Positions 3,363 to 57,551 of a stretch of DNA of 64,000 bases are shown here, one piece after another. The position numbers were made by a program, and so were the translations under genes. The notes under the pieces are model-generated. The model saw nothing but the letters and a program-made list of their open reading frames with translations, did not search any database and was not told the origin of the DNA. Origin of the DNA: Mobula hypostoma (Eukaryota); NCBI RefSeq assembly GCF_963921235.1, contig NC_086107.1:111788001-111852000 (forward strand), in the 5' to 3' direction. The first letter of the stretch is position 1; each line of letters starts with the position of its first letter.

Positions 3363-4189
3363 AAAATCCCACCACTCACCTACACACTAGGAGCAATTCA
3401 CCCATCAACCTGCACGCCTTTGGGGTGAGGGAAGAATCTGGAGCACCCGCAGGAACACCATGTGGTCACAGGGAGAACGTGCAGACTCCACACAGACAAT
3501 CCCCGAGGTCAGGATCAAAGACCAGCACTTCCACTGTCCCCTCCTTTACCCTGAGTCCCTAAGACACAGGAGCAGAATTAGGCCATTCAGCCCAATGAGT
3601 CTCCTCCACCATTCGATCGTGGCTGATTTATTTTCTCTCTCTCACCCCCACTATCCTACCAACCCTTTCAGATGTGGCGTGGGTGGAAACAGGCAAATCG
3701 GAGGGATCCCTCACGTGGGAGGACGTTCACACAGGGAGCACGCAAACTCTACAAGGATGATCCTGAGGGCAGGATTGAACCTGGGACTCTGGAGTTGTGA
3801 GGCTGGGCCACTGCGCCAGACTCCCCTCGTGCCGGTTTCTGCACGGTATCGATGTGGGTTAACTAATCCACTTTGGCTTCCAAAACTGGTTTGATTTTCA
3901 TCTGCATCTGTAAAGAGACAGACATAAAGATGAAAAATAGAAAGGTCAGCCTTGTTTGTCATGCGTACCTTGAAAAGTTGAAACATACAGTGAAATGCTT
4001 GTGTCGATGACCGACACAGTCCGAGGATGTGCTGGGGGCAGCCAGCAAGTATTGCCACACTTCTGGAACCACCACAGCATGCTCACAACTCACTAACCCT
4101 AAACCTCATGTGGATGGAAACCGGAGCACCCGGAGGAAACCCAGGCGCTTACAGACGGAACATACAAACTCCTCACACACGGCAGCAGG

Positions 4190-6175: not shown

Positions 6176-7430
6176 GAATAGTTATGACTCCTAATGCAAT
6201 CTCTCACACTCCATATATACGTGTAAGATGGGCTCCAGAAATGGCAGGCGCCCCTGGGAGTGTGTGAAGCAACCTTGAACCTTGCTGCACGGCCCGACTC
6301 TGTGTGACGCTGTCCAAGTCTGAGTTGATCCTGGAGACACAAGCAACTGCTCAATCTGCTGAGTTTCCCAGCAGGTTCTTCTGCTGCCGCCTTGAGAGTA
6401 TTTGGTAGGACAGAGTAGAGGGAGCTTTACTCTGCATCATATCGGCCTTCATCGGATCTGGGTGTTACTGACAGGATAGTACTATTTCAGAGAGGTTGGG
6501 TATGGGGGGAAACTTGGTGGGGGGGTCCGGGCCCAGAGCGTATCTAGGCAACGGGGCCCAGATCTTTCAGTGGGTATCGACCTGATATTCAGATGATTTA
6601 AACGCAGGGCCAGATGGATTGAAAAGGCTGAGGGTCGGGACGTTTACTCTGCTCTCTGCTGCACTGAGACCAAGGGCTGTGGGCCCACCTCAGCTGCTTC
6701 ATGCTTCATGTCTGTGAGCTTCACGGCGATTTGCCCCACTCTGTGAGGCTATGGGCCTACTCCGGCTGCTCCCGGTACATAGACTCAGTTTGGTTTGGAA
6801 TGCTGTTTGCTGCTTGCTTTTATAGCTTGCATGATTTGTGTGATTTTTTTCCTTCTTTTTCTGTGCAGTGGATGTTGGTCTTTTTTTAATTGGGTTCTTT
6901 CACATTTCTTGATTTATGTGACTGCCTGTAAGCAGATGCATATCAAGGTTGTATAATTTCTATGTACTTTGATAGTAAATGTACTTTGAAACTTTGAACC
7001 AGTCCTGAATGTGGATTATAAATTGCAAGCAAGCAGTGAATTGAAGATAAAAGCCTTGTCTTTGCACTTCCTTAAGAACAGGCTCCCCCACAGGCTCGGT
7101 GACTGCATATGCATCAGTGAAACGTTAACACAATGGGGTTTGCGTTCACTGCCCTGCAGTGATCCGGGCAAATATAGACTGAAGTAATTTGCAGCCTCAG
7201 GAAGCTTGCAATTACAGTATTTTGTTTCAGCAGCCGGAGTCTCACAGTCTCCGCGTTTTGCAGAGAGGGGTAAATGCCGCGAGGAGGAAGAGCGAGCGGA
7301 ATTGTCTGACCCTTGCCTTCTGTCCGAACCCCTGCCTTTTCAGTCCCTCTGGGACAGCGTTTAGATAATCCAAACACCGGGTCACTCCCCCACACACTAG
7401 GACCCGGGCACTGCCGCAGTGATACACTCT

Positions 7431-7930
7431 CAAACATCCCACCCTGTAAAAACTCATTTCAGGGAGGTAGCACCATCAATTTGCAGGAGACTCCCGGAAC
7501 TTCCGGGAGAGGTGGGATGTTTGCAATAGAGTAGCTCCTGAGCAGCTAGCCAGCTAGTTTAAATAACGTTAGCTATGCTAATGAACGAATGACTGTTAAA
7601 CTCACCTCAACATGTCTTTTACAGTCTTAACCCACCACGGGCAATAGAAAAGTCACTGTTGCAAACAGTGCAGCGAGCAACACTGTCATTATTTTTGACC
7701 CTCTATTAGGGAGGGGTACACTTTAGTGTAGTCTGGGGTGACGTACGTTTTATATTTTCTTTTTTTGGAACATTCTGCCATGGTGCTCTCGCGCTCTCTC
7801 TCGCTCGCTCTCTCTTGCTTGATCTCAAAAAAATCGATTTCCGGGATATCGTATATAATTTGCGGGCATCAGGAAGCCGCTATCAATATGCGGGCGACTC
7901 CTGGAACTTCCGGGAGAGGTGGGATGTCTG
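7431..7930 (+). mobile_element. 500-bp non-autonomous TIR element with 6-bp TSD and an internal duplicate right end
   Basis: caaacatcccacc...ggtgggatgtctg; cactct at 7425-7430 and 7931-7936; a second right end terminates at 7523. Confidence 0.85.
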
Positions 7931-12820: not shown

Positions 12821-13173
12821 AATATCACCCTGCAGCCTCGGACTGCCCTCCACTTCTATCAGCAACTCCGCCGTGTCATCTGTGATCATGCCTCTGACAT
12901 CCACATCCAAATTATTCAGATATCTGACAATCAGGAAATATACCAGCATCAAACTTTTTGGGACACAGGTGTCCAAACACAAAAACAACTCTCTGTCATC
13001 GTAAACACGAGGAATTCTGCAGATGCTGGAAATTCAAGCAACACACATCTGTCATCGCTCTCTATTGCACTGCTTCTCCCACCACATTTTCTGCGACTTA
13101 AAATGCTTTTATCACCTCTCTTTCCCAGTTCTGACAAAAGGTCTTTGACCTAAAGCTTTAACTGTTTCTATTT

Positions 13174-13702
13174 ACACACATAAAAGTTGCTGGTGAATGC
13201 AGCAGGCCAGGCAGCATCCCTAGGAAGAGGTACAGTCGACGTTTCAGGCTGAGACCCTTCGTCAGGACTAACTGAAGGAAGAGTGAGTAAGAGATTTGAA
13301 AGTGGGAGGGGGAGGGGAGATGCAAAATGATAGGAGAAGACAGGAGGGGGAGGGATGGAGCCAAGAGCTGGACAGGTGATTGGCAAAAGGGATATGAGAG
13401 GATCATGGGACAGGAGGCCCAGGGAGAAGGAAAAGGGGGGGGGGAAAGCCCAGAGGATGGGCAAGGGGTGTAGTGAGAGGAACAGAGGGAGAAAAAGGAG
13501 AGAGAGAAAAAGAATGTGTGTATATAAATAAATAAATAACGGATGAGGTGGGCATTAGTGGAAGTTTGAGAAGTCCTGACAAAGGGTCTCAGCCCGAAAC
13601 ATTGACTGTACCTCTTCCTAGAGATGCTGCCTGACCTGCTGCGTTCACCAGCAACTTTGGTGTGTGTTGCTTGAATTTCCAGCATGTGCAGAATTCCTCG
13701 TG
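13174..13702. mobile_element. Penelope-like element: two 3' ends in tail-out inverted arrangement, 15-bp TSD
   Basis: taactgtttctattt at 13159-13173 and 13703-13717; both arms match the 3' end of the element at 57552-59749. Confidence 0.9.
13233..13269 (-). ncRNA. Minimal type I hammerhead ribozyme motif (Penelope-associated)
   Basis: Minus strand reads agtc-CTGACGA-agggtctcagcct-GAAAC-GTC-gact: intact core, stem I agtc/gact, loopless palindromic stem III. Confidence 0.8.
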
Positions 13703-13982
13703 TAACTGTTTCTATTTGCTTCTCACCCCCTCTCCTCACCTGCCCACATCTCTTCCCCCTCCCTTTCCCTCTCTCCCATGGTCCACTGTCCTCTCCTATC
13801 AGTTCCCTTCTTCTTAACTTTTTACCTCTTCACCCTATCACCTCCCAGCTTCCCCTCACCTAGTCTGTCTGATGGCACTCTTGCAAAGCACCTTGGGGGA
13901 ATCTTACCACAATTTATCCAAATTTTTGTTGGGGTCCGGGGATTATTCTTTCTTGCCCCATTTCAGCCTATCCTCCCCCATA

Positions 13983-15800
13983 TTCTTCTTCTTTTATTTC
14001 TGGCTGTTTTTCGCATCTAGGCATATTACAGCCCTCCACAGGATGTATAATTATTTATAGAACTTCAAGGAACTCAAATTCTCGAATACAACCTAGTCTC
14101 ACGTATAAACTGAACAATAGACTCTTCAATGAAATGTTGATTGTCTTGATGGCCAGACAAAGATTGAATAGAAAACCAAAATAAATTTAAGCCAGATAGC
14201 CTCTTGAACAACATGCTTCTTTCAATTTTGTATCGATTACAGCTCAGCAAAACATGCTGGACTGTCTCTGGACTACCACGGTCACATAATCCAGTAGGAT
14301 GTTTTCCTATTATCTTTGAATAATAGTTTAGCCCACAATGCCCCAACCTAAGTCTTGTTAATTTCACCATATCTCTACGACTTAAAAGGTAACAGTCTGA
14401 GACCTTTTTAACTAGTGGGTGACCAGAAAAATAATGCCTGCCCCTTAATTCATTTTTCCAATCCTCCTGCCACTTATTCTCTATACCTTTCTTTAATCCT
14501 ACTTCTCAATTCTGCTCTGCCTAGGGGAACTCTAATTTCTACTTGCCTGCTCTGTAAGGAAGACTTTGCAATGCCATCCACAATTTCATTTCCCTCCACC
14601 CCAGCGTGCCCAAGTATCCATGAAAATCTAACTGCACAACCCACCTTCCCTACTCTAAACAACACTAAGAGAATCTCAATAACTATGTCAGGACGAGCTT
14701 TTGATTTACTCCCTTTTATAGCCTCTAAGGCAGCAGCAGAATCCGAACAGATGATAACCCTATGTGGTCGAGAGTCTTCTATCCACCATAAGGCCCAGAG
14801 GATTGCTAATAATTCTGTTGCAAAGACAGAAACACCTCCTGAAACCCGGTGACCAATCTTAACTCCAAGTTGAGACACATACATCCCAAATCCTGTCCTA
14901 CTGCTCTCTGGGCACACTGAGCCATCAGTAAAAATCTTCAGATAAGATCCCCATTTATTATTTAAATATTCATTTGTGATCAACGCTGATGAAAATGCAC
15001 TGCTTCCTTGAAGCTGAAAAAGGAGGAATAGGTCTACTTCTGGTTCTGGAAAGAGCCAAAAAGGGACGGGTGGCAAGCAAATTTGGTCAACTATGTCTTC
15101 CTCAGTCAGTTTCAATTTCACAGCCCAGTTATTAACCAAATCTAAAAATGGACATCTTTTATTTTTACTTTTGCGCTCCGACTTCCCCTGCAAAAGACAC
15201 TTTGGCAGACAGCTGTGATTGAATCCATTTAGTTTTACCCAATACTGCAGGCCCAACTGAATTCGTCTTAAATGTAGAGGCACTTTCCCATCTCCATACA
15301 TAATACCAGGACTGATGTTGTTCTAAAAGCTCCACAACAGAGTCTAAGTGCTTTGGACTGCACAGTGTCTAGTTTTCCAAGCACTGCCGTAGCAGCGGAA
15401 CCATAAGCAATACAACCATAATCTATAACTGATCTAATCATAGCTAGACATATTAAGTACATAGTTTCCCGCCCTGCTCCCCAGTCACATCCAGCAATAC
15501 TTCTCATAACATTTAAAACTTTCTCACACTTTCCAATTGTTTTATCTATATGAACCCTCCAAGTAAGTCTTTCATCAAACCAGACATCTAAAAACTTGAA
15601 TACCTTGACTCTTTCTAGTGGAGAATCATACAGACACAATTCACAATCAGGAATCTTTCTTCTAAAGCCAAAAATCATATATTTGGACTTAGAAGCAGAA
15701 ATCCTGAAACCCCATTTATTACTCGGCCAGCCACTCTTTGACCACTTTAAACCAACAAATTGTGAACAAGGCCCACTTACTTTCATTTTGACTCCAAGTT
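13983..15800 (-). mobile_element. I-clade (Nimb-like) LINE 3' portion: RT end, RNase H, CCHC
   Basis: KFLDVWFDERLTW (RT thumb); IFTDGS..ELLAI..ICSDS..WILGHAGVEGNEIVD (RNase H); RLRLGH..ETVQHVLLSC; aataaa plus (aag)n tail on the minus strand; frameshifted. Confidence 0.85.
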
Positions 15801-16701
15801 GACGGAATCTGGAGCAACATGGAGGAGCTCAGCGGGTCAGATATCTACTTGAAGGGTCTCAAGCCAAACCTTTGATTGTTCCTTCCCCTCTATAGATGCC
15901 GCCTCGCGTATTTGAGTTCCTCCAGCGTCTTGTTTGATGTGAGTTATTTCCTGCCTTACACGCTCTTGCCTCTAGATGGCGATGTGTGTCTGCCATTCCA
16001 TTGGTTCTAGAACTAGGCTCAGGTGATTCTGCAGATGCTGGAAATTCACACACAGAATGCTGGAGGAACCCAGCAGGCCAGGAAGTACCTATGGAAAGGA
16101 ATAAACAGTCGACGTTTCAGGTCGAGACCCCTCACCAAGAGTGGTGAGGGGTCTCGGCCTGAAACGTCGGGTGTTTAGGCACTTCCACAGATGCTGCCTG
16201 CCTGCTGGGTTCCTCCAGCATTTTGTGCATGATTCTGCAGATGCTGGTAATCTTAAGCAATGCACCCACAACGCTGAAGGAACTCATCAAGGATAAGAAT
16301 CGGGCTTAATATCAACAGAATATGTTGTGAAATTTGTTAACTTTATGGCAGCAGTACAATGCAATACATAATAATAGGAAAAAAGTAAATTACATTAAGC
16401 CCCTTGGTATGAACATTGAATTCTCCAACTTCTGGTAATTCCTTCCCCCTCCCTTCCCCTAACCCAGTTTCACCCTGCCCCCTCCCCCAGCTGCCTAGCC
16501 CCTCCCTCATGGTTCCGCCTCCTTCTACTACCCATTGTGCTTTCCCCTATTCCTTCTTCACCTTTCCTGCCTATCCCCTCCCTGCTTCCCCTCCCCCACC
16601 CCTTTATCTTTCCCCTTACTGGTTTTTCACCTGGAACCTACCAGCCTTCTCCTTCCCATCCTCCCTCCACCTTCTTTATAGGGACTCTGCCCCCTCCCTC
16701 T

Positions 16702-19923: not shown

Positions 19924-20274
19924 AATTGGCGACAAGGTTAATGAACCTACATCGTATCGGAACACCGTGTTTTAATTGATAATGACACTCGGAGGAAGAG
20001 CGCCAGGAACGAGCCAAGGAGCGGGAGAAGGAGGCACAGCGAGGCCGTGAGTCTGAAAAGAAGCGGGAGCACAGCCGGGGTCCGGAATGTCAGGAGACCA
20101 AGAGATGCAGTCAGAGCCGCGGCACATCCAGCCGAGACCACAGCCGACGCTGAGCCCCAGGGGCTGAGGGTCTGCCTGCCCCAGAAGGAAGATAAAAAGG
20201 AGCGATACACACAAAGGACACGTGAGTCAAAAAGGGAAATAAGGGGAGAACAGGGCTTAATTAACATAATAAAG

Positions 20275-21475
20275 ATGGCAATGATTGAAACCATTACAGC
20301 ATTTGATAGTGGCATTGAAGACTGGGCAGCTTACACTGAAAGAGTGGAGTTATATTGTGTGGGTAATGGTGATAAGGATGAAAAGAAAGCCAGCGTCTTA
20401 CTCAGTATTATGGGAGCAAAAACATACGGCCTGCTACAGAGATTGTTAACCCCTGAAAAGCCAGCTGACAAAGCGTTCAAGCAGACAGTAGACACTCTCC
20501 AACAGCATTTAAACCCCAAACCATTGGTCATTGCAGAAACATTTAAATTTCACAATCCGAATCAGAGCAAAAATGAAAGCATTTCCGAATATTGAGCTGA
20601 ATTGCGTAATTTATCAGAACATTGTCAATTTGGAGCTGGTCTATCGGATGCATTGAGGGTCAGGTTCTGTGTGGCATGCACTGTGAAACCACACAGAAGA
20701 AGCTTCTGTGTGAAAAAGACCTTACGTTTGAGAAAGTGCTAAACATTGCAATATCAACAGAAACAGTGGCACAGGGTGCTTCCGAAATATAACAAAAATC
20801 TCTGGAATATGCCACAAATAAAATGTCACCGAACAGGATTGAAGGAAAGAAATGTTATCGTGATGGGAACAGGTCACATGACCCAGATGACTGTTGGTTT
20901 AAAGACAAAGAATGCAGAAACTGTGGCAAACAGGGCCACATTGGCAGAGTATGCAAAGCTAGTCAACAGCAGAAAAAAGGCAAAATAGAGAGAAACAAGA
21001 AACCCCAGAAAGGAAAATACAACAAGGTACACAAAATGAAAGAAGGAAGTTCTGATGAAAGCAGTTCTGATGAAAACGACTCCGATGAAAGCGAATTGTC
21101 TTGTCGGCAACTTCACAGCATGAAAGAAACAGATGATCAAAGAGTAATATCGATCACTCCACAAGTGGCGGGCGTGAGACTGAAAATGGAGTTTGACACA
21201 GGCTCAGCTTTAACAGTGATCGTTGTACACGACTACAAACAACTGTTTTCGCACATACCCCTGAAATGAACTAAACTTCTACTAAAGACTTACACAAGAC
21301 AGAAAGTGCATCCCAAAAGTAAAATTAAAGTGACGGTGACCTACAGAGACAAAACACAGCAGCTGAACCTCTATGTACTAAAAAATGGAGGACCACCATT
21401 GCTGGGACGGGAACGGCTCAGGAAAATCCAGTTGGATTGGCACACCATCAAGGCACTGGATGTGTCAACAAAGGA
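20275..21475 (+). pseudogene. Gypsy gag and aspartic protease, disrupted
   Basis: FDSGIEDWAAYTERVELY (gag), CRNCGKQGHIGRVC zinc knuckle, LKMEFDTGSALTVI (protease DTG), PPLLGR; contains stops and frameshifts. Confidence 0.92.
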
Positions 21476-21494
21476 GGGCAGCTCGGCGGGGAAG

Positions 21495-22428
21495 ATGTCC
21501 GCAGCTCTCCTCTCACCCATTGTCAACTATTACAATGACAAGGAGGAGCTAGACAGCGTCGACGATGAGGACGAACGCAGTATCCGTGGCCGCGACACGG
21601 ATGAAGATACAGACAATGCAAGGGAGACAGATATTGCCAATAAGCAGGATGATGAAGACTACCTGGAAGTAAAAGAGCAGATGTAACAGTAGAAATTGGT
21701 ATCTCTCAAAAGACAGCTACAGCAGTTACAGGAAGGCACTTTGCAGGAGTATCAGAAATGGATGAAGAAACCAGATCAACAATACAAGGAAAGAATATGA
21801 AATGCAGAGCTTTTTCTGCAACTGGAGACGGGACAAGTGGAAAGGAATTATATTAAAGAGAAGAAAGCAGCAGTGAAGGAATTTGAAGATAAAAAGATTG
21901 AGTTAGAAGAAAAGAAAAAGATGATTGAGAATGAGAGGCCAACAATGGAAATCACAGGAGATTCTATGGAGGTAAAGCCAATAATGACTAGGAAACTAAG
22001 GAGGAGACCTAATGACTCTGTTCCAATTACAGACAAAAGACAAAAACCTGCACCTGCGCAGTTAAATTACTTGTTAACAGATGAACAGATAATGTAAGAT
22101 CTGCGAACTCTCAATAAGCTTAAGTCTCTGAAAAGACCAGCATCTGTCTTCTCCTGAGCATCTTCCCAGCACTCCTGCTGAATCACCAGCACAAAGATAT
22201 GAAGCACGAATAGATGATGAAAAGTTATATTATGATAAGAGATGGTATCATAAAGGTCAGGCTCTCTATTTGGAATCTAAGGAGAATACGAAGATTGGCT
22301 GTGTAATTAGCTCAGTTGGAACAAATGAGATATAGGTAAGGAAGACAAGTGATAGTACAAAGATGCGTATATACCTAGAACAGCTGCACAGAGGAGTCTT
22401 CATTATACGGAGGCGATCAGCTGCCTAG
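21495..22428 (+). pseudogene. SUDS3: Processed (intronless) SUDS3/SDS3 Sin3-HDAC subunit retrocopy
   Basis: [109 protein letters not shown] matches vertebrate SUDS3 from start to stop; several premature stops, a frameshift near 22145, and a short in-frame deletion. Confidence 0.95.
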
Positions 22429-22520
22429 AAATCTTAGCCAGTTGGAGGCGCACATCTTCTTAACTCCCTATGCTCACAGGTCAACTTTTCATGACTTTTA
22501 TATGGAAATCTGTATTAAAA

Positions 22521-23406
22521 CAATCAGCAAAAATGATGAAACTATGTACAGGGAGGAGGTCAAACACCTAGAGAGCTGGTGCAGGGATAACAACTTGATG
22601 CTTAATGTCACCAAAACCAAGGAGATGATCGTCGATTTCAGAGGGTCTCAGCCAGAGCACACACCCCTCAGCATCAGCGACTCCACAGTGGAGAGAGTGG
22701 AAAACATCAAGTTCCTTGGGGTGCAGATCTCGGACAATCTCACCTGGTCCAGGAACACCACTGGGATTGTGAAACGAGACCAGCAGAGATTGCACTTTCT
22801 GAGGAAATTTAAACAAGCATCACTCCCCACTAACATCTTAACTACATTCTACAGAGGCGTGGTTGAGAGTGTGCTGACCTTTTGCATCACAACCTGGTAC
22901 TCCAGCTGCAGTGCTGTCGACAAAAAAGCCTTGCAGAGGGTGGTTAGGGGAGCAGAGAAGGTTATTGGGGTCTCCCTACCTTCTGTCCAAGACCTCTTTC
23001 AGAGTCGATGCCTCCAGAAGACACAGTACATCATTAAAGACCCCTCACACCCTCTCCATGAACTGTTTGTTCTTCTGACATCAGGCAGACGTTACAGGGG
23101 CATCAAAACTAAAACCACAAGGCTACTAAACAGCTTCCTCCCACAGGCAGTCAGACTGCTAAATAGCTGCTCTACCTGACTCTGCTTTGGACACTTTTAA
23201 CTTGCACTGGACACTTATAACTGATTTTAACTGACATGTGGCTGTTGTGTTTTACTATTTATTGTTATGTTTATTATTTAGTGTTGCGTTTGTTATGTTA
23301 TGATTGCACTGCCCCTGAAAAACGCTGTCTCATTCTGCCCTGCAGAGCTGATGTATGGTTAGAATGACAATAAAGTTTTCTGAATCTTTGGATCTTGAAT
23401 CTTGAA
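22521..23406 (+). mobile_element. Rex/Babar-like LINE 3' fragment nested in the Gypsy element
   Basis: Open frame YREEVKHLESWCRDNNLMLNVTKTKEMIVDFR..KFLGVQISDNLTW..NSFLPQAVRLLN; (cttgaat)n tail. Confidence 0.9.
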
Positions 23407-23670
23407 GTTTATTGACAGACATTACCCGGAGAGGCAGAGAAGATCCCCCCCGCCCCCCAGAGACTTGAGTTATAAATGGGTCTTAGACCAAAAGTAAAAA
23501 AAAGACTCGTTATAATTTGATGTTGTTATGTTACTTTGTTATAATTTGATATTATTAAGTTACTAAGTAAACAAATGGTAGGCATTTGTATGTTAAGGGT
23601 AAACATATTTGTTTAGTGTAGTGCCCCAGTTAAAACAAAATTATACACTATTAAAATACAAGGGGAGGAG

Positions 23671-23868
23671 TGTACCGTATAGCATACAGTATAATAAGGG
23701 ACTACTTTATGTTTTATTAACACGTCATTGCATGCGCTATTAAGCGCGTATTGATCTGTACACGTGTGCCGAGTTCAGTTTCTGCCAGTAAAGAACCATG
23801 AACCTTGGCTCCCATCTCTAGCGTTTTTATTAAGAGCGTTGTTGTGTAATCAAGCCACATACACAACA
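23671..23868 (+). repeat. 3' LTR
   Basis: Preceded by the PPT and followed by TSD agtgc. Confidence 0.95.
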
Positions 23869-23911
23869 AGTGCAAAAACAGAAATAAACAAAATACTGAG
23901 GTAGTGTTCAT

Positions 23912-24655
23912 TAAACCACAAAACTTAATTGATATAGTTGTTGAAGAAAGTGTGAAAATGGGTCAATCGATCAATTGCAAAAAGGCAGAATGTATGGTGA
24001 TATCCAAAAAGAAGGAGAATCCTATCTGCAGGCTGAGAATAAATGGGGAAGACATAAAACAAGTACAGAACTTTTGCTACTTAGGAAGCTGGGTGACATC
24101 AGATGGTAGGTGCAACATGGACATCAAAAGAAGAATAGAGATGGCAAAAAACACCTTCACGAGAATGAAGAGCATACTGACCAACACTAAACTAAGTATG
24201 ACAAACCGCCTCAGAGCACTGAAATGTTACGTTTATCCATTTATGTTATATGGCTCAGAATGTTGGACAATATCTAGCAACATGAAGAAACAAATTGAAG
24301 CAGCGGAGATGTGGTTTTTGCGGACGATGCAAAGAATATCATGGACGAAACAAATATCTAACGAGGATGTCATGAACAGAGCAAGCACAAAAAGAGAAAT
24401 AATGTATGAGATCATGAAAAGGCAATGTGTCTTCATTGGACATGTGATTAGGAAAGAGGAGTTAGAATGCACGGTAATTATGGGAAAGATTGAAGGAAAG
24501 AAAGCAAGAGGAAGGCAAAGACAAATGATGATGGAGACAGCAGCCAGAGAACTGGAAATGAATACCAATGAATTGATCCACTTGACCTGAAACAGGAGTG
24601 TGTGGGCCATGGCAGTCAAAGCTCAAACTGGGCATGGCACCTGATGATGATAATG
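23912..24655 (+). mobile_element. RTE-clade LINE 3' fragment
   Basis: QVQNFCYLGSWVTSDGRC..DIKRRIEMAK..MLYGSECWT..GKIEGKKARGR; (tga)n tail; TSD agtgttcat (23903-23911) versus agtgtttat (24656-24664). Confidence 0.9.
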
Positions 24656-26059: not shown

Positions 26060-29000
26060 CAATCGAATCGGGAGCGGGAGAGGAAGCACCAGGTTTGTGA
26101 TTGGGATTTAAAAAAGAAGAATTTGCGGTCTTTTGGCATTTTCCAGCGTTCCAATCAAATAGTGATTTGCAAAGGCAAATAAGAATAAGGTTGGGACAAG
26201 CAGACCAGCCATTGTTGGAGTGGACCAGTATTAGAGTAGGGATGCTTTGGCTCAACAGACTTGGGCAAGAAAAGGCTATGTGGGGTACATATCTGGTAAG
26301 TTTCCTCTTCTTCATTCTTCATTGTCTTCTGTTCATACATAGTTAGAGCAGTGAGGATGGCTCCAGAGTCTGCGTTGCGTTCTTCACGTGAGATGTGGAA
26401 ATCCTGGCCGACCTCCAGCCTCCTAGATAGCCACATCTGAACCAGGCGCACCGAACTGCAGCTTCTCAGAGAACGTGTCAAGGAAGTGGAGCTGCAGCTG
26501 GATGACCTTCGACTCATATGGGAAACTGAGGAGATGATAGATAGGAGCTACAGGGAGGTAGTCACCCCTACGTTGCAGGAGGCAGGTACCTGAGTGAGTG
26601 TCAGGAGAGGGAAGAGAAATGGGCAGCCAGTTCAGAGTACCCCTGTGGCAGTTCCCCTCAATAATAAGTAAAACACTTTGGCAACTGTTGGGAGGTGGAG
26701 GGGGGCAACCTACTTCTTGGCAAAGACTGGGTCAAAAGTCTGAGTCTAGCGCTGTGGCTCAGAAGGAAAGTGGGGAGAAGAGGACTACAGTAGTGATAGG
26801 GGATTCCATAGTTAGAGGAGTACATATGAGATTCTTGGATGCAGTAGAGACACCCGGATGGTGTGTTGCCTCCCAGGTACCAGGGTCAGGGACATCTCAG
26901 ATCAGGTTCACACAACATTCTAAAGGAGAAGGTGAGCAGCCAAAAGTCCTGGTACATATTGGCACCAATGACATAGGTAGAAAAAGAGAGGAGATCCTGA
27001 AGGGAGAATTTAGGGAGCTAGATAGAAAGCAGAAAAGCAGGACTTCCAGTCTGGTAATCTCTGGATTGCTGCCTGTGCCATATGCCAGTGAGGGTATGAA
27101 TAAGATGACTTGGCTGATGATTGTATGGCTGAGCAACTGGTGGAGGGGTCAGAGTTTTGGATTTCTGGAACGTTGGGATCTCAGGTAGGACCTGAACAAA
27201 AGGGACAGGTTATACCTGAACCTGAGGAGAACCAATATCCTTGCAGGCAGGTTTGCTAGATGTGTTGAGTGTTTAAACTAAATTGGTAGGGGAATGGGAA
27301 CCAGTATGACAGGACTGGACATGGAGCAGTTGGTATGCAAGCAGAGGCAGTGTGTAGTGAGACTGTCGGAAAGGGCAAAATTGCAGTCAGTGGGATGAGT
27401 TGAAGTGTAACAGGGGGACAAAGTTGAAAGGGGTGATGAATACAGTGCTGAAGGTGTTATATTTGAATGCACACAGTAAACAGAATAAGGTAGATGATCT
27501 TGTGGCACAGTTAGAGATTGGCAGATATGATATTGTGGGCATCACTGAGTCACGGCTGAAAGAAGATTATGTTTGAGAGATTCACATCCAAAGGTACACA
27601 CTGTATCAAAAGGACAGTCAATTAGGCAGAGGAGGTGGTGTGGATCCGTTGGTAAAAAATGAAATAAAATCCTTGAAAATAGGTGACATCGGAACAGACG
27701 ATGTAGAATCCTTGTGGGAAGAGTTAAGGAACTGTAAGGGTAAAAAGATCCTGATGGGAGTTATATGCAAGCTTCTCAACAGTAGCCAGAATGTGGGCTA
27801 CAAGTTACAACAGGAGATAAAAAATACATGCCAAACAGGCAATGTTATGATAGTGATTGAGGATTTCAATATGCAGATAGATTGGGAAAATCAGGTTGGT
27901 GCTGATTTTGGATCCCAAGAGAGAGAATTTGTGGAATCCTTATGGGATGGCTTTTTAGAGCAGCTTGTGGTTGAGCCTATATAGGGGATCAGCTGTTCTG
28001 GATTGGGTGTTGTGTAATGAATCAGATTTAATTAGTGAGCTTAAGGTAAAGGAACCCTTAAGAGATAGGGCCTATAATATGACAGACTTCACCCTGAAAT
28101 ATGAGAGGGAGAAGCTAAAGTCAAATGTATCAGTATTACAATGGAGGAAAGGCAATGACAGAGGCATGACAGGGGAGCTGACCAAAGTTGATTGCAATGG
28201 GACACTAGCAGAACAGCAATGGTTGGACTTTTTGGGAACAATTCTGAAGGTACAGGATAGATACATACCTGTGTACATACATTATTGATGCTTCTGGACA
28301 CGTCTTCAGTGATGTTCCTGGAATCACCGGGTGTTTCGGATCTTTCAATGTCATACAATCTCCTCCAGGTGACCCAGCCGGGGCTGATCAGGCTCCAGCT
28401 TGTGTCCAGATGGCTAGCTACTTATGACTCCATGGCTCCCCTCCTTTGAGCCATAGCCACCTTGAGGCCCTCTCTGCTGCATCGGTGGTACTGCGGATGG
28501 CTCTCCCCTTCCTCTCTCCCTCGATGCCCAAAATGCTGAAGGCTCTAACTAAGGAACGGGCTACAAATCCCCTACAACCAACCTCCACTGAGAGACACCT
28601 TGCTCTCCATCTAGCCTGCTGACAGTTGCTGACCAGTCCTGCGTACTTGGAGAGCTTCCTTTCGAAGGCCTCCTCCAAGCTATCTTCCCATGGGACTGTC
28701 AGCTCCAGCAGCACCACTTGCTTAGTAGACTCAGACACTAGGACAATGTCTAGTCGCAGGGTGGTGGCTGTGATATGGTTGGGGAACTTCAGCTGCCCTT
28801 CGAGGTCCACCAACAGCTGCCAGTCCCTTGCAGGGGTCAGAATGCCTGCAGATGTCCTTTTGGCAGGTATTGGCTGCTCCCCAGCTCTGACAAAGGCAAT
28901 GGTCTGCTTGGAGGGGCGGGACCACTTCACCCACTCAACTCCTGCGCTGCCGGCTTCAGTGATGGTCTTCAGGATCTGATCATGCCTCCACCTGTACTGT

Positions 29001-29570
29001 CCCTCACCAAGTGCCCTTGTGCAGCCGCTGAGGATGTGCTCCAGGGTTCCTCGCTTGGAGCACAGTGGGCACGCAGATGACTCTGCCTTGCCCCATGTGT
29101 GCAGGTTTGATGGGCTTGGAAGCACATCGTACACTGCCTGGATGAGAAATTGGATGCGGTGTGGTTCGGCTTTCCAAAGATCAGTACCAAAAAACATGAA
29201 GTATTCTAAAGATTGGTTGATACAACCATGGCAGACAATGGAAGTCAACGCCAATGTAAAAGCAAAAGAGGGGGCATATTACAGAGCAATAATTAGTGGG
29301 AAGCTTTTAAAAACTAATTGAAGGCAACTAAAAAAGTCATAAGGAGGAAAAAGATGAAATATGAAGGTAAGCTAGCCAATAATATCAAAGAGGATACTAG
29401 ATGCTTTTCAGATATCTAAAAAGTAAAATAGAGGCGAGAGTATCTATTGAACCACTGAAAAATGATGCTGGAGGGTTAGTAATGGGGGACAAGGAAATAG
29501 TGGATGAAATGGATAAATATTTTGCATCACTCGTCAGCGAAGAAGACACTAACATTATGTCGGGAGTTCA
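26060..29570 (+). mobile_element. CR1 LINE 5' half (ORF1 SGNH esterase, ORF2 APE endonuclease), decayed and split by a HERO-like insertion
   Basis: VVIGDSIVRG and HIGTNDIG (ORF1 esterase); IEDFNMQIDW and AVLDWVLCNE (APE); sequence resumes after about 29185. Confidence 0.88.
28270..29182 (-). mobile_element. HERO-like RLE non-LTR retrotransposon 3' fragment (copy A)
   Basis: CPLC..HILSGC zinc knuckle, YRWRHD, LRLDIVL..LLELTVPWE..ERKLSKY, VEVGCRGF: restriction-like endonuclease domain. The first ~23 residues of the listed ORF come from flanking CR1. Confidence 0.88.
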
Positions 29571-30110: not shown

Positions 30111-30374
30111 TTTCCTCCCATATTCCAAAGACATACAGGTTAGTGTTGATGAGTTGTGGGTGTGCTATATTGGCACTGGGAGTGTGGCAACATTTGTGTG
30201 CTGCCAAGCACAGTCCTCGATGATTTAACTTGATGTAACTGATGCATTTCACGGTATGCTTCGATATACCGATGTCAAAACTAATCTCTTGCCTTATTGC
30301 ACGTGCGTCTAGAGAGGTCTGCTTCTTAACTGGGCACCTAAATCCTCATATTAACTATATAAAAATTTTTTTGC

Positions 30375-31740
30375 CCTGCCTACGTTATGACGAAATCAGG
30401 CAGGAAGTGGTCAGCCCGTGTAGCAGTTGATGAATCAGAGTCTAGATTGAAGCACAAGGAGACGGTTGGGGCTATCCAGCTAGGCCGCCAGGGACTTGGA
30501 TGGACAACCCACAAGTGGTGGTCATCTTCTACAGGTAAGGAGCGCCGTGAGCTTGTAACACAAGAAATACGAGAGGTAGAAGAGGAGAAGAGGTTAACTA
30601 AAACAGCTGGCCTGGCCAAACAAGGGGCTTGGACCCGGTGGGAAAGTGTTGAACAACAACATCTATCTTGGAATGTTCTGTGGCAGATGGAACTGCTCCG
30701 CATTTCTTTTCTATGCAGAGCAGCGCACAATCTGCTCCCAACACCTGCCAACCTCAGCACCTGGTATGAAGGTAAGACAGACAGGTGTGCTGCTTGTGGC
30801 GAGAAGGGAACACTTCAACATATTTTGAGTGCATGCAGAGTCAATCTTTCCAGCGGCCTGTACACTTGGAGACATAACAACGTTCTCAAAGTTGTAACAG
30901 AAGCGGCTGAGCAGAGAGTACTGCAGCACAACTTATTTCATGCCCCATGCTGCACAGAACATCGTATTTCATTTGTGAAAGAAGGCTCCAAGTCAAGGGT
31001 GTACAGTGCAGGCTCACGATCAAGCATACTTTCTTCAGCCAATGATTGGTGTGTCAAGACTGACCTGGACGGGAAAGGCAGTTTCCCGGAGCAAATAGCT
31101 TTCACCACATTGCGTCCGGATATAATGGTATGGTCTGACACCAGCAGAGAAGCGGTTAATGGTGAACTCACAGTCCCCTGGGAAGACAACATCGATGAAG
31201 CCCATGAGCGCAAGTTAACCAAGTATGCAGAATTAAGATCAGAGTGCAGAGACAGAGGGTGGAAGGTCTCATGCTACCCATTTGAGTAGGCTGCCGTGGG
31301 TTTATTGCGTTAACTTTCCAGAAGTGGCTGCATGACCTTGGCTTCACTAGAAGAGAGATCAAGTCAACCAGCAGGGCTGTAGCTGAGGCAGCAGAGACAG
31401 GATCAGCATGGGTATGGACCAAGTATGTCCAGAGGGGCAGATAGTCAGACAGTGTATACATGTCTTGCAAACCCTTCAGTAGTTGCATAGACACCTGAAG
31501 AGCAGACTATCTGTTGGATGGAAGTGACCAACAACTCTGATAGAGGCAGATGCCAAGTTTTTAAGCTCACCAGTGGAAGGTGGTGCTTTAGCACTGCTGG
31601 CCCACCACCTCGAGGGAGCCTTGATCATAAGTGGGCCGAAACTCCTGAAGACAGGTGGCAGATCAACTGATGATCCTACTGGTGATAGCACAGGACAGTT
31701 AACACCTTAGTCCACGTGTATTTTCAGTTCATTCTGGTAC
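30375..31740 (+). mobile_element. HERO-like RLE non-LTR retrotransposon 3' fragment, second family (copy B)
   Basis: GRQGLG, QGAWTRWE, CAAC..HILSAC, YTWRHN, LRPDIMVW..ELTVPWE..ERKLTKY; a 1-bp frameshift precedes VGCRGF; stop near 31444. Confidence 0.9.
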
Positions 31741-34083
31741 CTACATGTACCATGACCACTGCATCTTCTTGCCCCTAGCCCAGAGTAAATGTCAGAAGCT
31801 CTGGCATTGCTTGCCAGTCTCCTGTTCTTTAAGGCTCCTCTGTAGAGAGAGAGTTAAGTGTGCCAGGATTCTGTGAGTTCACAGATGACATCACCTGGTC
31901 CCTTAACCTGAACAAGAAGGCACAGCAGTGCTTCCACTTCCGAAGGAGATTGAGTCGAGCAAGGCTCCCTCCCAATCTTAACTGAATTCAATAGGACCAC
32001 CTTTGTATGTAATGTTGGCTGGAGTCTACCATTACTGCAGGACTTGCATGCATCAGGAAAAGTAACTGGGCAGGATAAAATCGTTGTGGACACTACCCAC
32101 CCTGCAAACTGTCTTTTCCAAAAGCTCCCTTCTGGAAAGTGCTACAGGGCTATTAAAACAAAAACTTTACACCATCTTAAAACTTTCTTCCCCCAGTCAG
32201 TTAATCTGATCAACCATTCTTTAGTTAGCCCCCCACACCCCCCTTTATCTATTACCCCATCACTGCACAGCACTGTGAACACTTTAAATGACTTTTTTAT
32301 AAAGCTGTTTACATTTTAAATACATGCTAGTATTTACGTATTTATGCACAATTCATTCCATGTCATATTCTAAATTTATTTTTACATAATTCTCTATTCT
32401 TTCATCGTTGCTTTTCGTTACAGGTCGTTCCAACACACCACAGCAAATTCCCAATCCGCTTATCCTGCCATTCGTGCTCTGGGTATTATTTATTTACTTT
32501 TTAAAAATTATTTGCACATTTGTTCTTTGTCGCACGTTGGATGTTTATTTGTCTTTGTTGTATGTGGTTTTTCATGGATTCCAATGTGTTTTGTGGCTGT
32601 CTGTAAGAAGATGAATCTCAGGGCTGTATACGGTATACATACTTTGAAAATAAATTACTTTGAGCTTTGAAATGTACGGTATATAGCAAATGAAGTTGAT
32701 CCTTGAAATTGGTACACAAGTGATATATCATGGCTGCAACACGTGGGAGCCACTCGACACTGGCGTGATGCTAACTGCTGTGTTTGTAGCTTAAGGAGCT
32801 TTGGCTCTGGGTAGCCGAGCTGGAGGCCAAGCGGTAGATGCATCAGGGAGCAGAGAAGGTACATGGGTGACAAGAAACGTAGAACATAGGACATAGAAGA
32901 GTACAGCACAGGACAGGCTATTCGGCCCACAATGTTGTGCCGAACCAGCTAAAAAGCAAATCAAATATACCCAAACACTAATCCCTCTTACCTACACAAA
33001 GTCCATATCCTTACATTCATGTGCCTATCCAAACGTCTCTCAAAAGCCTCTAATGCAGCACATTCAAATCAAGTCAAGTCAAGGCAAGTCAAGTCACTTT
33101 TTATTGTCATTTCAACCATAACTACTGGTACAGTACACAGTAAAAACGAGATAACATTTTTCAGGACCATAGTGCTACATGAACAATACAAAAACTACAC
33201 TGAACTACGTAAAGAACAACACAAAACTACACTAGACTACAGACCTACCCAGGACTGCATAAAGTGCACAAAACAGTGCAGGCATTACAATAAATAATAA
33301 ACAAGACAATAGGCACAGTAGAGGGCAGTAGGTTGGTGTCAGTCCAGGCTCTGGGTATTGAGCAGTCTGATGGCTTGGGGGAAGAAACTGTTACATAGTC
33401 TGGTCGTGAGAGCCCGAATACTTCGGTACCTTTTGCCAGATGGCAGGAGGGAGAAGAGTTCTTATGAGTGGTACGTAGGGTCCTTCAAAATGCTGTTTGC
33501 TTCTAGGTATCCATGACTCAGGCAGTGCATTTCAGGCATCCATGATTCTCTGAGAGAAAAACTTACCCCTCTCGTCCCCCTTGAACCTACCCCCTCTCAC
33601 CTCCAATGCATGTCCCCTGGTACTAGACATTTCAATTCTGGGAAACTGATACTGGATTCGGCCCAGTACATCACGGGTAAAACCCTTCCAACCATTGAGC
33701 ACATCAACATGAAACATCATCGCAGGAAAGCAGCATCCACCATCAGAGATCGTCACCACCCAGGCCATGCTCTTTCTCGCTGCTGCCACCAGGTAGAAGG
33801 TACAAGGGGCTCAGGACTCACACCACCAGGTTCAGGAACAGTTACTACCCCACAACCATCAGGCTCTAGAATAAAGAGGGATAACTGCACTCATTCTATT
33901 TCTAGTGCTCCACAACCAAATGTGATAGGGAGAAACAAAAGTCTGACGTAGCAATATTTCAGTGGAGTAAGGGAAATTACGGTGGTATGAGGGAGGAGTT
34001 GGCCAAAGTAAATTGGAAGAAACTGCTGGCAGGAATGACAGCACAGCAGCAATGGCAGCATTTCTGGGGAAAATGAGGAAGAT

Positions 34084-35583
34084 TTTTCAAAACTCGTTAG
34101 ATTCTGGACTAGTTCCTGAGGATTGGAGGGTGGCTAATGTAACCCCACTTTTTAAAAAAGGAGGGAGAGAGAAACCGGGGAATTATAGGCCAGTTAGCCT
34201 AACGTCGGTGGTGGGGAAACTGCTGGAGTCAGTTATCAAGGATGTGATAACAGCACATTTGGAAAGCGGTGAAATGATCAGACAAAGTCAGCATGGATTT
34301 GTGAAAGGAAAATCATGTCTGACGAATCTCATAGAATTTTTTGAGGATGTAACTAGTAGAGTGGATAGGGGAGAACCAGTGGATGTGGTATATTTGGATT
34401 TTCAAAAGGCTTTTGACAAGGTCCCACACAGGAGATTAGTGTGCAAACTTAAAGCACACGGTATTGGGTGTAAGATATTGGTGTGGGTGGAGAATTGGTT
34501 AGCAGACAGGAAGCAAAGAGTGGGAATAAACGGGACCTTTTCAGAATGGCAGGCGGTGACTAGTGGGGTACCGCAAGGCTCAGTGCTGGGACCCCAGTTG
34601 TTTACAATATATATTAATGACTTGGATGAGGGAATTAAATGCAGCATCTCCAAGTTTGCGGATGACACGAAGCTGGGTGGCAGTGTTAGCAGTGAGGAGG
34701 ATGCTAAGAGGATGCAGGGTGACTTGGATAGGTTGGGTGAGTGGGCAAACTCATGGCAGATGCAATTTAATGTGGATAAATGTGAAGTTATCCACTTTGG
34801 TGGAAAAATAGGAAAACAGATTATTATCTGAATGGTGGCCGATTAGGAAAAGGGGAGGTGCAACGAGACCTGGGTGTCATTATACACCAGTCATTGAAAG
34901 TGGGCATGCAGATACAGCAGGCGGTGAAAAAGGCGAACGGTATACTGGCATTTATAGCGAGAGGATTCGAGTACAGGAGCAGGGAGGTACTACTGCAGTT
35001 GTACAAGGCCTTGGTGAGACCACACCTGGAGTATTGTGTGCAGTTTTGGTCCCCTAATCTGAGGAAAGACATCCTTGCCATAGAGGGAGTACAAAGAAGG
35101 TTCACCAGATTGATTCCTGGGATGGCAGGTCTTTCATATGAAGAAAGACTGGATGAACTGGGCTTGTACTCATTGGAATTTAGAAGATTGAGGGGGGATC
35201 TGATTGAAACGTATAAGATCCTAAAGGGATTGGACAGGCTAGATGCAGGAAGATTGTTCCCGATGTTGGGGAGTTCCAGAACGAGGGGTCACAGTTTGAG
35301 GATAGAGGGGAAGCCTTTTAGGACCGAGATTAGGAAAAACTTCTTCACACAGAGAGTGGTGAATCTGTGGAATTCTCTGCCACAGCAAACTGTTGAGGCC
35401 AGTTCATTGGCTATGTTTAAGAGGGAGTTAGATATGGCCCTTGTGGCTACAGGGGTCAGGGGGTATGGAGGGAAGGCTGGGTTCTGAGTTGGATGATCAG
35501 CCATGATCATAATAAATGGCGGTGCAGGCTCAAAGGGCCGAATGGCCTACTCCTGCACCTATTTTCTATGTTTCTATGTTTCT
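34084..35583 (+). mobile_element. Young 5'-truncated CR1 (RT to 3' end)
   Basis: NYRPVSLTS, QHGF, YLDFQKAFD, GVPQGSVLGP, FADDTK, continuing to the stop at 35487 with one frameshift in an A-run near 34805; (tttctatg)n tail; aagat on both sides. Confidence 0.95.
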
Positions 35584-44784: not shown

Positions 44785-45190
44785 CTAGGGAAGACTGGAT
44801 TGAGGAAGTGTTTGAACATAAGAAAGCCAAATACCAGGAGATGGTAGAGCAGTACCAGAGACAGGGGTAGAGGGCACGATGCGTGCCTACAGAGCTGGGG
44901 TGTAGAGGTTTTCCTGGCTGCTCGCTCTGTAGAACCTACTCTCTCCTTGGATGGTCAACCAAACTGTGGGGGTTGCAAAGAAAAGAGTCACCAGGATGGT
45001 CACAGAGGCAGCTGAGTGAGCCTCCACATGGACGTGGACCGACGCTGATGGGACACAAGCCGGGGACTGATCAACCCGTCTGGGTCGCCTGGGTGAGGGT
45101 GTCTGATGTTGAAAGCACTGAAACACTCGGTGACCCCAGGTTACATCACTGATGATGTGCCCCAGCGCAACCTAGAACGTATCTCAGCAT
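44785..45190 (+). mobile_element. HERO-like element extreme 3' fragment (copy C)
   Basis: IEEVFEHKKAKYQEMVEQ..RARCVPTELGCRGFPG; 3' UTR alignable to copy A. Confidence 0.8.
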
Positions 45191-56900: not shown

Positions 56901-57551
56901 CAACCTGAGTGTGGCTTCATCTTTACAGTAGAGGAGGCCGTGGATAGACATGTCAGAATGGGAATGGGATGTGGAATTAAAATGTGTGGCCACTGGGAGA
57001 TCCTGCTTTCTCTGGCGGACAGAGCGTAGATGTTCAGCAAAGCGGTCTCCCAGTCTGCGTCGGGTCTCACCAATATATAAAAGGCCACATCGGGAGCACC
57101 GGACGCAGTATATCACCCCAGTCGACTCACAGGTGAAGTGATGCCTCACCTGGAAGGACTGTTTGGGGCCCTGAATGGTGGTAAGGGAGGAAGTGTAAGG
57201 GCATGTGTAGCACTTGTTCCGCTTACACGGATAAGTGCCAGGAGGGAGATCAGTGGGGAGGGATGGGGGGGACGAATGGACAAGGGAGTTGTGTAGGGAG
57301 CGATCCCTGCGGAATGCAGAGAGAGACGGGGAGGGAAAGATATGCTTAGTGGTGGGATCCCGTTGGAGGTGGCGGAAGTTACGGAGAATAATATGTTGGA
57401 CCCGGAGGCTGGTGGGGTGGTAGGTGAGGACCAGGGGAACCCTATTCCTAGTGGGGTGGTGGGAGGCTGGAGTGAGAGCAGATGTACGTGAAATGGGGGA
57501 GATGCGTTTAAGAGCAGAGTTGATAGTGGAGGAAGGGAAGCCCTTTCTTTA

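Follow-up and report, generated by a model that had tools for sequence, protein, structure and literature searches.

A covarying RNA motif with a complete hammerhead core in a rewired strand order, found in the 3' untranslated regions of HERO-like retrotransposons

Among small ribozymes, hammerheads have been studied most thoroughly, and their three circular permutations are taken to be the full set; a figure of a 2019 review depicts types I, II and III only (PMC6765202). Within retroelements, hammerheads sit in the terminal repeats of Penelope-like elements (PLEs), and self-cleaving ribozymes similar to those of hepatitis delta virus (HDV-like), folded as nested pseudoknots, occur in the elements R2, RTE and L1Tc, which lack long terminal repeats (non-LTR elements; PMC6765202). 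In one PLE that was studied, the hammerhead needed protein to cut, hammerhead mutants had no effect on insertion in vitro, and no in vivo reads ended at the hammerhead site (PMC11167929). Here we describe an RNA motif of ~115 nucleotides (nt) in the 3' untranslated region (UTR) of a HERO-like retrotransposon, a decayed copy of which (copy B) lies at 31567-31685 (+) of a 64,000-nt stretch of the Mobula hypostoma genome (RefSeq assembly GCF_963921235.1, contig NC_086107.1, positions 111,788,001 to 111,852,000 of the forward strand; this whole stretch is called the window, and positions are counted from its first letter). The feature is real and widespread, and there is strong support for its being a structured RNA whose hammerhead core is complete.

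The motif combines the letters of a hammerhead core with six helices: a closing stem (Pc), a hairpin (H), stems I, II (helix X) and III, and a helix Y. The pairings, the GAAA and the CTGATGA that an earlier note on this DNA had listed for copy B were all found in place when the + strand was read directly. The parts are given below, with counts from an alignment of 41 rows and with 'outside the model' marking helices that the covariance model described further on does not contain.

31567..31578 (+): closing stem Pc, 5' strand tcaccagt(gg); pairs with 31674-31685, covaries in 8/8 pairs
31579..31598 (+): hairpin H, ggtggtgc-ttta-gcactgct; leads from Pc to stem II with zero spare bases, covaries in 8/8 pairs
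31599..31603 (+): stem II (X), 5' strand ggccc, its first G being the G10.1 equivalent; 98.7% and 91.9% paired, outside the model
31605..31610 (+): helix Y, 5' strand ccacct; two-sided changes in 6/7 pairs
31611..31613 (+): kink-turn-like loop, non-bulged strand c-GA; G in 38/41 rows, A in 38/41
31614..31619 (+): stem III, 5' strand gggag, and position 16.1 (here C, U in the family); U16.1 in 40/41 rows, the exception being copy B
31620 (+): H17, with the predicted scissile bond at 31620/31621; C 19, U 13, A 9, G 0 (n=41)
31621..31626 (+): stem I, 5' strand ttgatc; two-sided changes in 6/6 pairs, outside the model
31627..31632 (+): A-rich linker ataagt, joining stems I and II; 2-6 nt across rows, mostly A-ended
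31633..31637 (+): stem II (X), 3' strand gggcc, ending in C11.1; C in 38/41 rows
31638..31641 (+): GAAA, corresponding to G12, A13, A14 and A15.1; kept in 40, 41, 41 and 41 rows (n=41)
31642..31646 (+): stem III, 3' strand ctcct; shares the covariation of stem III
31647..31652 (+): kink-turn-like loop, bulged strand gaa-GA-c; where present, G in 37/38 rows and A in 38/38
31653..31658 (+): helix Y, 3' strand aggtgg; shares the covariation of helix Y
31661..31666 (+): stem I, 3' strand gatcaa; shares the covariation of stem I
31667..31673 (+): CUGAUGA, corresponding to C3-A9; N7 free, the other positions kept in 40-41/41 rows
31674..31685 (+): closing stem Pc, 3' strand (cc)actggtga, directly after A9; pairs with 31567-31578
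31686..31738 (+): ~52-nt 3' tail of the element; no poly(A), flanks vary among copies

Copy B was compared with 29 other copies of its family (family B) from the same 3.48-Gb genome. The family is young and abundant, with 1,460 candidates at first look, the best 40 of which are 98-100% identical. Its site departs from that of copy B: the CC that the earlier note had put down to possible decay is private to copy B, position 31619 being T in 14 of 16 other readable copies and in the majority row, so that the family B site reads GUC. The closing stem of copy B is weakened by two further private changes (31577 and 31677); in most family B copies it has 12 base pairs (bp) and begins directly after CUGAUGA. 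The pairing ggcccac/gtgggcc, which had been proposed at 7 bp, has to be shortened, as only 5 bp (ggccc/gggcc) are conserved across families; family B itself mostly carries GCGGGCC, which places an A.C mismatch at pair 6. The element ends ~52 nt past the motif, without poly(A), and the sequence that follows differs in every copy.

Relatives of the element were collected by a protein-alignment scan of metagenome contigs, which gave 80 loci encoding proteins 33-50% alike, many of them stopping short of the 3' UTR. A covariance model was built from 19 examples with the nested helices Pc, H, Y and III only, stems I and II being omitted, and searched against 83 sources (366 kb, both strands) at a cut-off of E<=0.01. 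Of the 53 matches, three fall in the window and two in other loci of the same genome; the 80 metagenome loci contribute 48, spread over 42 of them. Without exception the matches lie on the strand of the open reading frame (ORF), and the single match located within an ORF (L092:3288-3384, E 0.009) was counted as false. Where both ends were seen (28 loci), the motif starts 17-183 nt 3' of the ORF in 24 and 411-1,583 nt in four. Copy B scores 75.2 bits (E 1e-17). The other two copies in the window, A and C, exist as the earlier note had described them, with the spacing of copy B and other letters in the helices; the family of copy A is 94-96% alike, that of copy C 84-88%.

28295-28408 (-): copy A, with CUGAAGA and the site GUA; 81.9 bits; directly 3' of the stop of an ORF at 28418-29278 (-)
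45050-45163 (+): copy C, with CUGAUGA and the site GUC; 77.9 bits; of an older family

For the analysis of covariation, 41 matches with E<=1e-5 from 37 sources were realigned, after removal of exact duplicates (L077, L096, L101, L103, L143, L145), of weaker, cut or false matches (L129, L083:1-51, L152, L108, L092) and of sources without matches. The rows form 31 clusters at 80% identity and 24 at 70%. Over a pseudoknotted structure of 40 pairs, 93.1% of the cells are paired, compared with 59.8% after shuffling; the covariation score is 0.806 against 0.214 in shuffles, and none of 500 shuffles reached the observed value of any of five measures. When the partners were slid by 1-3 columns, pairing was 33.5-43.5%. 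Stem III is 94.7% paired with two-sided changes in 5/6 pairs, stem I is 89.4% paired with such changes in 6/6 pairs, and stem II shows them in 4/5 pairs; since stems I and II are absent from the model, their support is independent of the alignment method. The hint of covariation that had been drawn from copies A and C is thereby borne out, as every helix named at the time covaries across the 41 rows, and core conservation holds across families as well. The aligned rows contain 112 G.U pairs, which would be mismatches if read on the opposite strand; together with the confinement of matches to the strand of the ORF, this assigns the structure to the sense RNA.

In the textbook hammerhead pattern, N7 is free and G is forbidden at position 17, and the rows follow this pattern. 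Counted over the 41 rows, C3 is kept in 40, U4, G5 and A6 in 41 each, G8 in 40 and A9 in 41; G12 is kept in 40, A13, A14 and A15.1 in 41 each, and U16.1 in 40, its sole exception being copy B. N7 takes all four letters (U25 C8 A6 G2), while H17 is never G (C19 U13 A9). The pair beside GAAA, equivalent to G10.1-C11.1, reads G-C in 37 of 40 rows; A15.1-U16.1 persists in 40 of 41. Because a motif-aware regular expression and the model served to find the examples, detection was partly conditioned on the core pattern; despite this, the helices change fully between lineages and the core stays constant. As the conserved letters match the catalytic set of the hammerhead one-for-one across lineages, a hammerhead core fold is under selection. 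This selection extends to six helices and the full hammerhead core, in 24-31 separate lineages of HERO-like retrotransposons.

The strands are connected in the same way in all 41 rows. The chain runs Pc5'-H-II5'-Y5'-NGA-III5'-U16.1-H17-I5' in its first half and A-rich linker-II3'-GAAA-III3'-NNNGAN-Y3'-(0-3 nt)-I3'-CUGANGA-Pc3' in its second. The succession of NUH strand, GAAA strand and CUGANGA strand is that of none of types I-III in any row, as the earlier note had recognized from single copies. Its remark that a simple helix II is absent applies to the plain three-way form; a helix II as such is present, formed by ggccc/gggcc beside GAAA. GAAA is preceded by a strand whose partner lies upstream (helix X), and CUGANGA is followed by one whose partner is the 5' end (Pc). 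No unpaired columns separate Pc, H, stem II and the core; with A9 continuing through Pc and H into stem II without unpaired bases, a perfect four-way junction of the core, stem II, H and Pc results. A second, three-way junction joins stem II, helix Y and stem I and so links the three hammerhead stems to one another at their far ends. Conventional nested folding yields either Pc+H+II or Pc+H+Y+III, depending on the family, and is blind to the pseudoknot.

Two further elements of the structure recur. Kink-turns such as Kt-7 and those of box C/D RNAs consist of a helix, a 3-nt bulge, tandem G.A/A.G pairs and a second helix. The 3x6 loop between stem III and helix Y fits this consensus (3-nt bulge, G.A, A.G), with the strict sequence signature in 28 of 41 rows; moving the end of stem III by one adds a few more. 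In at least six of the 41 rows, a bulge of 4-9 nt on the opposite strand takes its place. In 26 of 39 rows, the apical loop of H contains a 6-mer that is self-complementary, with six versions (UGAUCA, UGGCCA, UGUACA, AGUACU, GACGUC, CCCGGG), compared with a mean of 5.6 and a maximum of 13 rows after shuffling of the loops (2,000 trials). Such palindromes, found for example in L117, L122, L111 and L120 and in the window copies A and C, suggest loop-loop (kissing) pairing between two RNAs or two copies of the motif; the loop of family B, UUUA, is not palindromic.

Three other pairings were considered and rejected. A plain stem II following CUGANGA and preceding GAAA is available in copy C as a 4-bp option (GUGC/GCAC) and is absent from the majority of its family and from other families; in copies A and C, gtcgcc could pair instead with ggtgac, a pairing that overlaps helix Y and that family B lacks; and a second kink-turn at CUGAUGA/Pc lacks the GA on the opposite strand.

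We favor the reading that the motif is a hammerhead core in a new, clamped architecture and predict from the sequence that it cuts itself; to this we give a probability of about one half. Stems I, II and III and the core would fold as in a hammerhead, and the only local change would be the swap of the backbone at A9/G10.1 into the four-way junction. With the core stacked on stem II, the local hammerhead geometry would be preserved apart from this swapped backbone. The far end of stem III would bend back, by the kink-turn or, in some families, the bulge, into helix Y, which would contact the far ends of stems I and II in the second three-way junction. Cutting would take place after H17 by the usual hammerhead chemistry and leave a 2',3'-cyclic phosphate and a 5'-OH. 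Both products would be held by ~28 bp (Pc, II, Y and III), so that the cut would amount to a reversible nick and not to a release, and most of the RNA would stay, or return to being, joined. What such a nick might be for is the most speculative step; where the motif precedes a full-length copy in the common head-to-tail arrangement, it may trim the leader, or, alternatively, it may divide RNAs into those serving as message and those serving as template.

The first of these purposes refers to the way in which copies are arranged in the genome, where full-length family B copies usually lie directly behind the 3' end of another copy: a 24-mer across the junction of tail and 5' UTR has 60 matches genome-wide, compared with 88 for the start of the 5' UTR. 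In an intact relative from the same genome (L032), a 351-nt direct repeat, 96% alike and including the motif, precedes the 5' UTR (3431-3781 vs 7293-7643). With head-to-tail copies and a hammerhead core in the terminal stretch, the context can be likened to PLEs, and family B has the arrangement of their pseudo-LTRs (pLTRs), a terminal stretch on both sides of the ORF in head-to-tail copies. The upstream pieces range from <14 nt to >481 nt, so that their length is not that of a fixed repeat, and they contain the whole motif in 16 of 29 junctions. Of these 29, twelve pieces exceed the range covered, that of L032 starts 351 nt from the end of the tail, the start lies 50-70 nt before the site in three and at GAAA in four or five, two junctions have no recognizable piece, and the rest are shorter. 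The reverse transcriptase (RT) of R2 is capable of end-to-end template jumping, and jumping of this kind would give variable upstream pieces as seen here.

The fragments starting at or just after GAAA (L161, L174, L179, L180) begin 18-28 nt past the predicted site. An 85-nt fragment of the family B tail that starts right after GAAA, mostly with CUGUUGA, occurs in addition in the same genome (L155-L160, on contig C40 and others); it sits in the LTR of a Gypsy-like element with a SCAN, zf-CCHC and Integrase_H2C2 ORF on the other strand and has been amplified with this element (2,232 junction matches at <=1 mismatch). The GAAA starts, in four or five of the 29 pieces and in the LTR-borne fragment, may reflect stops of the RT at the GC-rich stem II. 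A SINE (short interspersed element)-like partner using only the last 85 nt of the tail, which a step in contig depth past GAAA and the many junction matches had suggested and which would have spoken against recognition of the whole fold by the RT, was considered and rejected, since it is the LTR-borne fragment and uninformative on recognition by the RT. In contigs from four sequencing runs, probably of DNA, neither starts nor ends were seen, which is uninformative on expression and on cutting.

Several observations weigh against a self-cutting motif. Self-cleavage is a prediction from sequence, and no cut was observed. Target-primed reverse transcription needs the 3' end, which a cut 104 nt inside the element would part from the ORF. 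Neither the copies nor the pieces upstream of them begin after H17, from which it follows that the templates were intact at the site: the 20-mer ending at H17 has 1,478 matches and the 20-mer following it 1,514 (<=2 mismatches), with no pile-up of starts, and none of the 29 upstream 3'-end fragments starts at the predicted site, all 15-16 that reach it running through. The motif is absent in at least two related loci with 218-492 nt past the ORF, L079 (3478-3969) and L110 (3820-4037), and an Rfam search of 31400-31800 at E<=10 gave three weak matches, with no hammerhead family among them. In solved hammerheads, stems II and III are coaxial; helix-length considerations suggest that this cannot be kept when helix Y and all other helices are formed together; this argument uses a rough stick geometry that is too crude to decide and is entered as a caveat only. 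A reversible nick is consistent with the intact genomic copies and is not proven by them.

The main rival, which we consider possible but less likely than the clamped hammerhead, is that the motif does not cut at all and serves as a recognition scaffold, a fold derived from the hammerhead or convergent with it that the RT binds as a 3' UTR handle for target-primed reverse transcription, with the clamp (helix Y, kink-turn and four-way junction) or a bound protein keeping the core in a non-cutting shape within the ribonucleoprotein. A handle would suit the position of the motif shortly after the ORF (17-183 nt in the 24 of 28 loci mentioned above) and ~52 nt from the end of the element, which parallels the RT-binding 3' UTR of R2 (PMC12222951); every genomic copy was made from RNA intact at the site, and geometric strain would favor an inactive core. 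Conserved hammerheads without visible cutting in vivo also have a precedent in the PLE whose hammerhead mutants left in vitro insertion unaffected and for which no reads ended at the site (PMC11167929). What a protein handle does not explain is the one-for-one presence of the catalytic letters, the free N7 and the exclusion of G from position 17; the motif is missing in some relatives, and a correctly folded hammerhead core is an active site. The scaffold thus accounts for position and intact templates, and less well than the clamped hammerhead for the exact core, and because the folded core is itself the active site we favor a catalytically competent clamped hammerhead.

A role in dimerization or cyclization, in which the apical loop of H would kiss the same loop of a second RNA or of a second head-to-tail copy and the rest of the motif would present the loop, is unlikely as the whole explanation. 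It draws on the excess of palindromic loops (26 of 39 rows, where shuffled loops reach 13 at most), and Penelope-like hammerheads reportedly cut as dimers, a finding ascribed to Lunse et al.; a variant would be a hammerhead that works only as a dimer. The palindrome is, however, absent in 13 of 39 rows, including the very successful family B (~1,500 copies), and leaves the invariant core and the other five helices unexplained. This role is compatible with both the clamped hammerhead and the scaffold and excludes neither. That an ordinary structured UTR bears hammerhead-like words by accident is highly improbable: CTGANGA and GAAA are short, and 27 places in the window have GAAA 10-60 nt before CTGANGA, but only three of the 27 have the helices, and across 24-31 lineages the same 13 core positions remain constant while the letters of every helix vary. 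Chance is already contradicted by the model matches, the covariation and the core conservation.

Some related loci deserve separate mention. In L102:21-131 and L103:1525-1635 all helices are kept and the core is degenerate, with CUUGACAA instead of CUGANGA; this is either a decayed copy or a lineage losing the core. L079 has a single CUGAUGA beside a hairpin in place of the motif, and several metagenome contigs carry the motif also 0.5-1.5 kb upstream of the ORF. The motif at L118:3442-3555, on a metagenome contig, is near-identical to that of window family A (28295-28408, -), with stem III altered on both strands (GGGCG/CGUCC vs GGUUG/CACCC); the majority sequence of family A has one C.U mismatch in this stem.

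As to the host element, the ORF remnant before copy B comprises 308 codons and ends early at a stop that copy B alone carries. An RVT_1 domain is present in L032, whose closest database proteins are 'uncharacterized' proteins of ~1,000 residues, with 66-73% identity in amphioxus and further relatives in sea urchin, bivalves, lamprey and fish. In an alignment of 38 protein relatives, the columns of the CCHC finger and of an RPD..E..K nuclease motif are invariant. The element accordingly comprises RVT_1, zf-RVT, CCHC and a restriction-like endonuclease of PD..(D/E)xK type, and by this predicted make-up it is a non-LTR retrotransposon of the R2 superfamily with a restriction-like endonuclease (REL). 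Repbase HERO entries are named for hosts including amphioxus, sea urchin, bivalves, lamprey and kinds of fish (PMC7650587). The clade label HERO fits the protein domains and the hosts of these named relatives, and we use HERO-like as a description only. The window is dense in retroelement remains, largely nested transposon copies. A 609-codon open frame at 57492-59321 (+) encodes RT and GIY-YIG domains and belongs to a PLE; at Rfam gathering scores no hammerhead was found near it.

30363..31289 (+): remnant of the C-terminal part of copy B's ORF, with the RT protein's zinc-binding region (PF13966, E 4.9e-06)
13158-15828 (-): retroelement remains with RNase H
19945-24590 (+): retroelement remains with zf-CCHC, RVT_1 and an ALKBH8_N-like tail
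33971-35487 (+): retroelement remains with RVT_1

Taken together, we tentatively propose, at slightly less than even odds, that the motif is a fourth natural form of the hammerhead, not related to the others by circular permutation: an active ribozyme entered at A9/G10.1 through a four-way junction, its stems tied by a kink-turn, its clamped products cutting and rejoining in balance, with a kissing-loop palindrome as partner in many lineages, and the first hammerhead of autonomous non-LTR (R2-superfamily) elements. If so, search models for ribozymes, which at present miss the motif completely, would need to be changed; the motif would illustrate how much rewiring a hammerhead core tolerates and provide a natural design for a ribozyme with trapped products; a widespread clade of animal retrotransposons would join the ribozyme carriers; and the puzzle of hammerheads kept in elements whose mobilized RNA is uncut would be sharpened. 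A motif that does not cut would still be a rare reuse of a catalytic fold as a structural handle.

The earlier note could not recall a description of such a motif, and this agrees with the databases and literature searched. Rfam 15 gave no match in the whole window at the gathering threshold. A literature search, mainly outside subscription journals and without supplements, found no hammerhead in 3' UTRs of HERO or the R2 group, no kink-turn within a hammerhead and no non-circular hammerhead permutation; among the papers retrieved, one concerns hammerhead/hairpin intersection sequences unrelated to the motif (PMC8370743), and another names Hero within a list (PMC13580325).

The closest described systems each share a part of the motif. 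Like the HDV-like ribozymes, it would place a ribozyme fold with nested pseudoknots in non-LTR elements including the R2 group, its cleavage being only predicted; fold and core are unrelated, and HDV-like ribozymes occupy the 5' end and cleave at the 5' edge of their own fold, whereas the motif lies in the 3' UTR and its predicted cut in mid-motif. The RT-binding RNA of the R2 3' UTR (Rfam R2_retro_el) is, like the motif, pseudoknotted and situated close to the 3' end of an element of the R2 superfamily, where the RT has to bind, and the two differ in that no sequence or model match connects them; to our knowledge, no hammerhead core has been reported in R2 3' UTRs. Kink-turns are matched at the level of sequence by III3'-NNN-GA-N-Y3' opposite Y5'-N-GA-III5', in which the GAA-GA of copy B is as in Kt-7; they differ from the at least six of 41 rows with a 4-9-nt bulge on the other strand. 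The pLTR hammerheads of PLEs likewise provide a hammerhead core in an RT-encoding retroelement, on both sides of the ORF through head-to-tail copies, but PLEs carry a GIY-YIG endonuclease where the host of the motif is a non-LTR element with REL endonuclease, and their hammerheads are of minimal type I, where the motif has ~115 nt, six helices and a kink-turn-like loop.

Hammerheads of types I-III (Rfam Hammerhead_1, Hammerhead_3, Hammerhead_II, HH9 and HH10) differ from the motif in strand order, which is no circular permutation of theirs, in that entry and exit are at A9/G10.1 through a four-way junction and not through an open stem, and in that none of its stems I, II and III is capped by a hairpin loop, their far ends being joined through helix Y. 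Because it has neither their three-way junction nor their type I-III topology and is not matched by the Rfam models, the motif stands outside the hammerhead family as now defined. What it shares with them is the active part. Stems I and III flank the cleavage-site strand, III following GAAA and I preceding CUGANGA, and both covary; the core is complete across rows, copy B itself departing from it at U16.1 (C at 31619). The helices flank two of the three core strands identically, G10.1-C11.1 and A15.1-U16.1 are kept, and the 13 core positions, the free N7 and the forbidden G17 are common to both.

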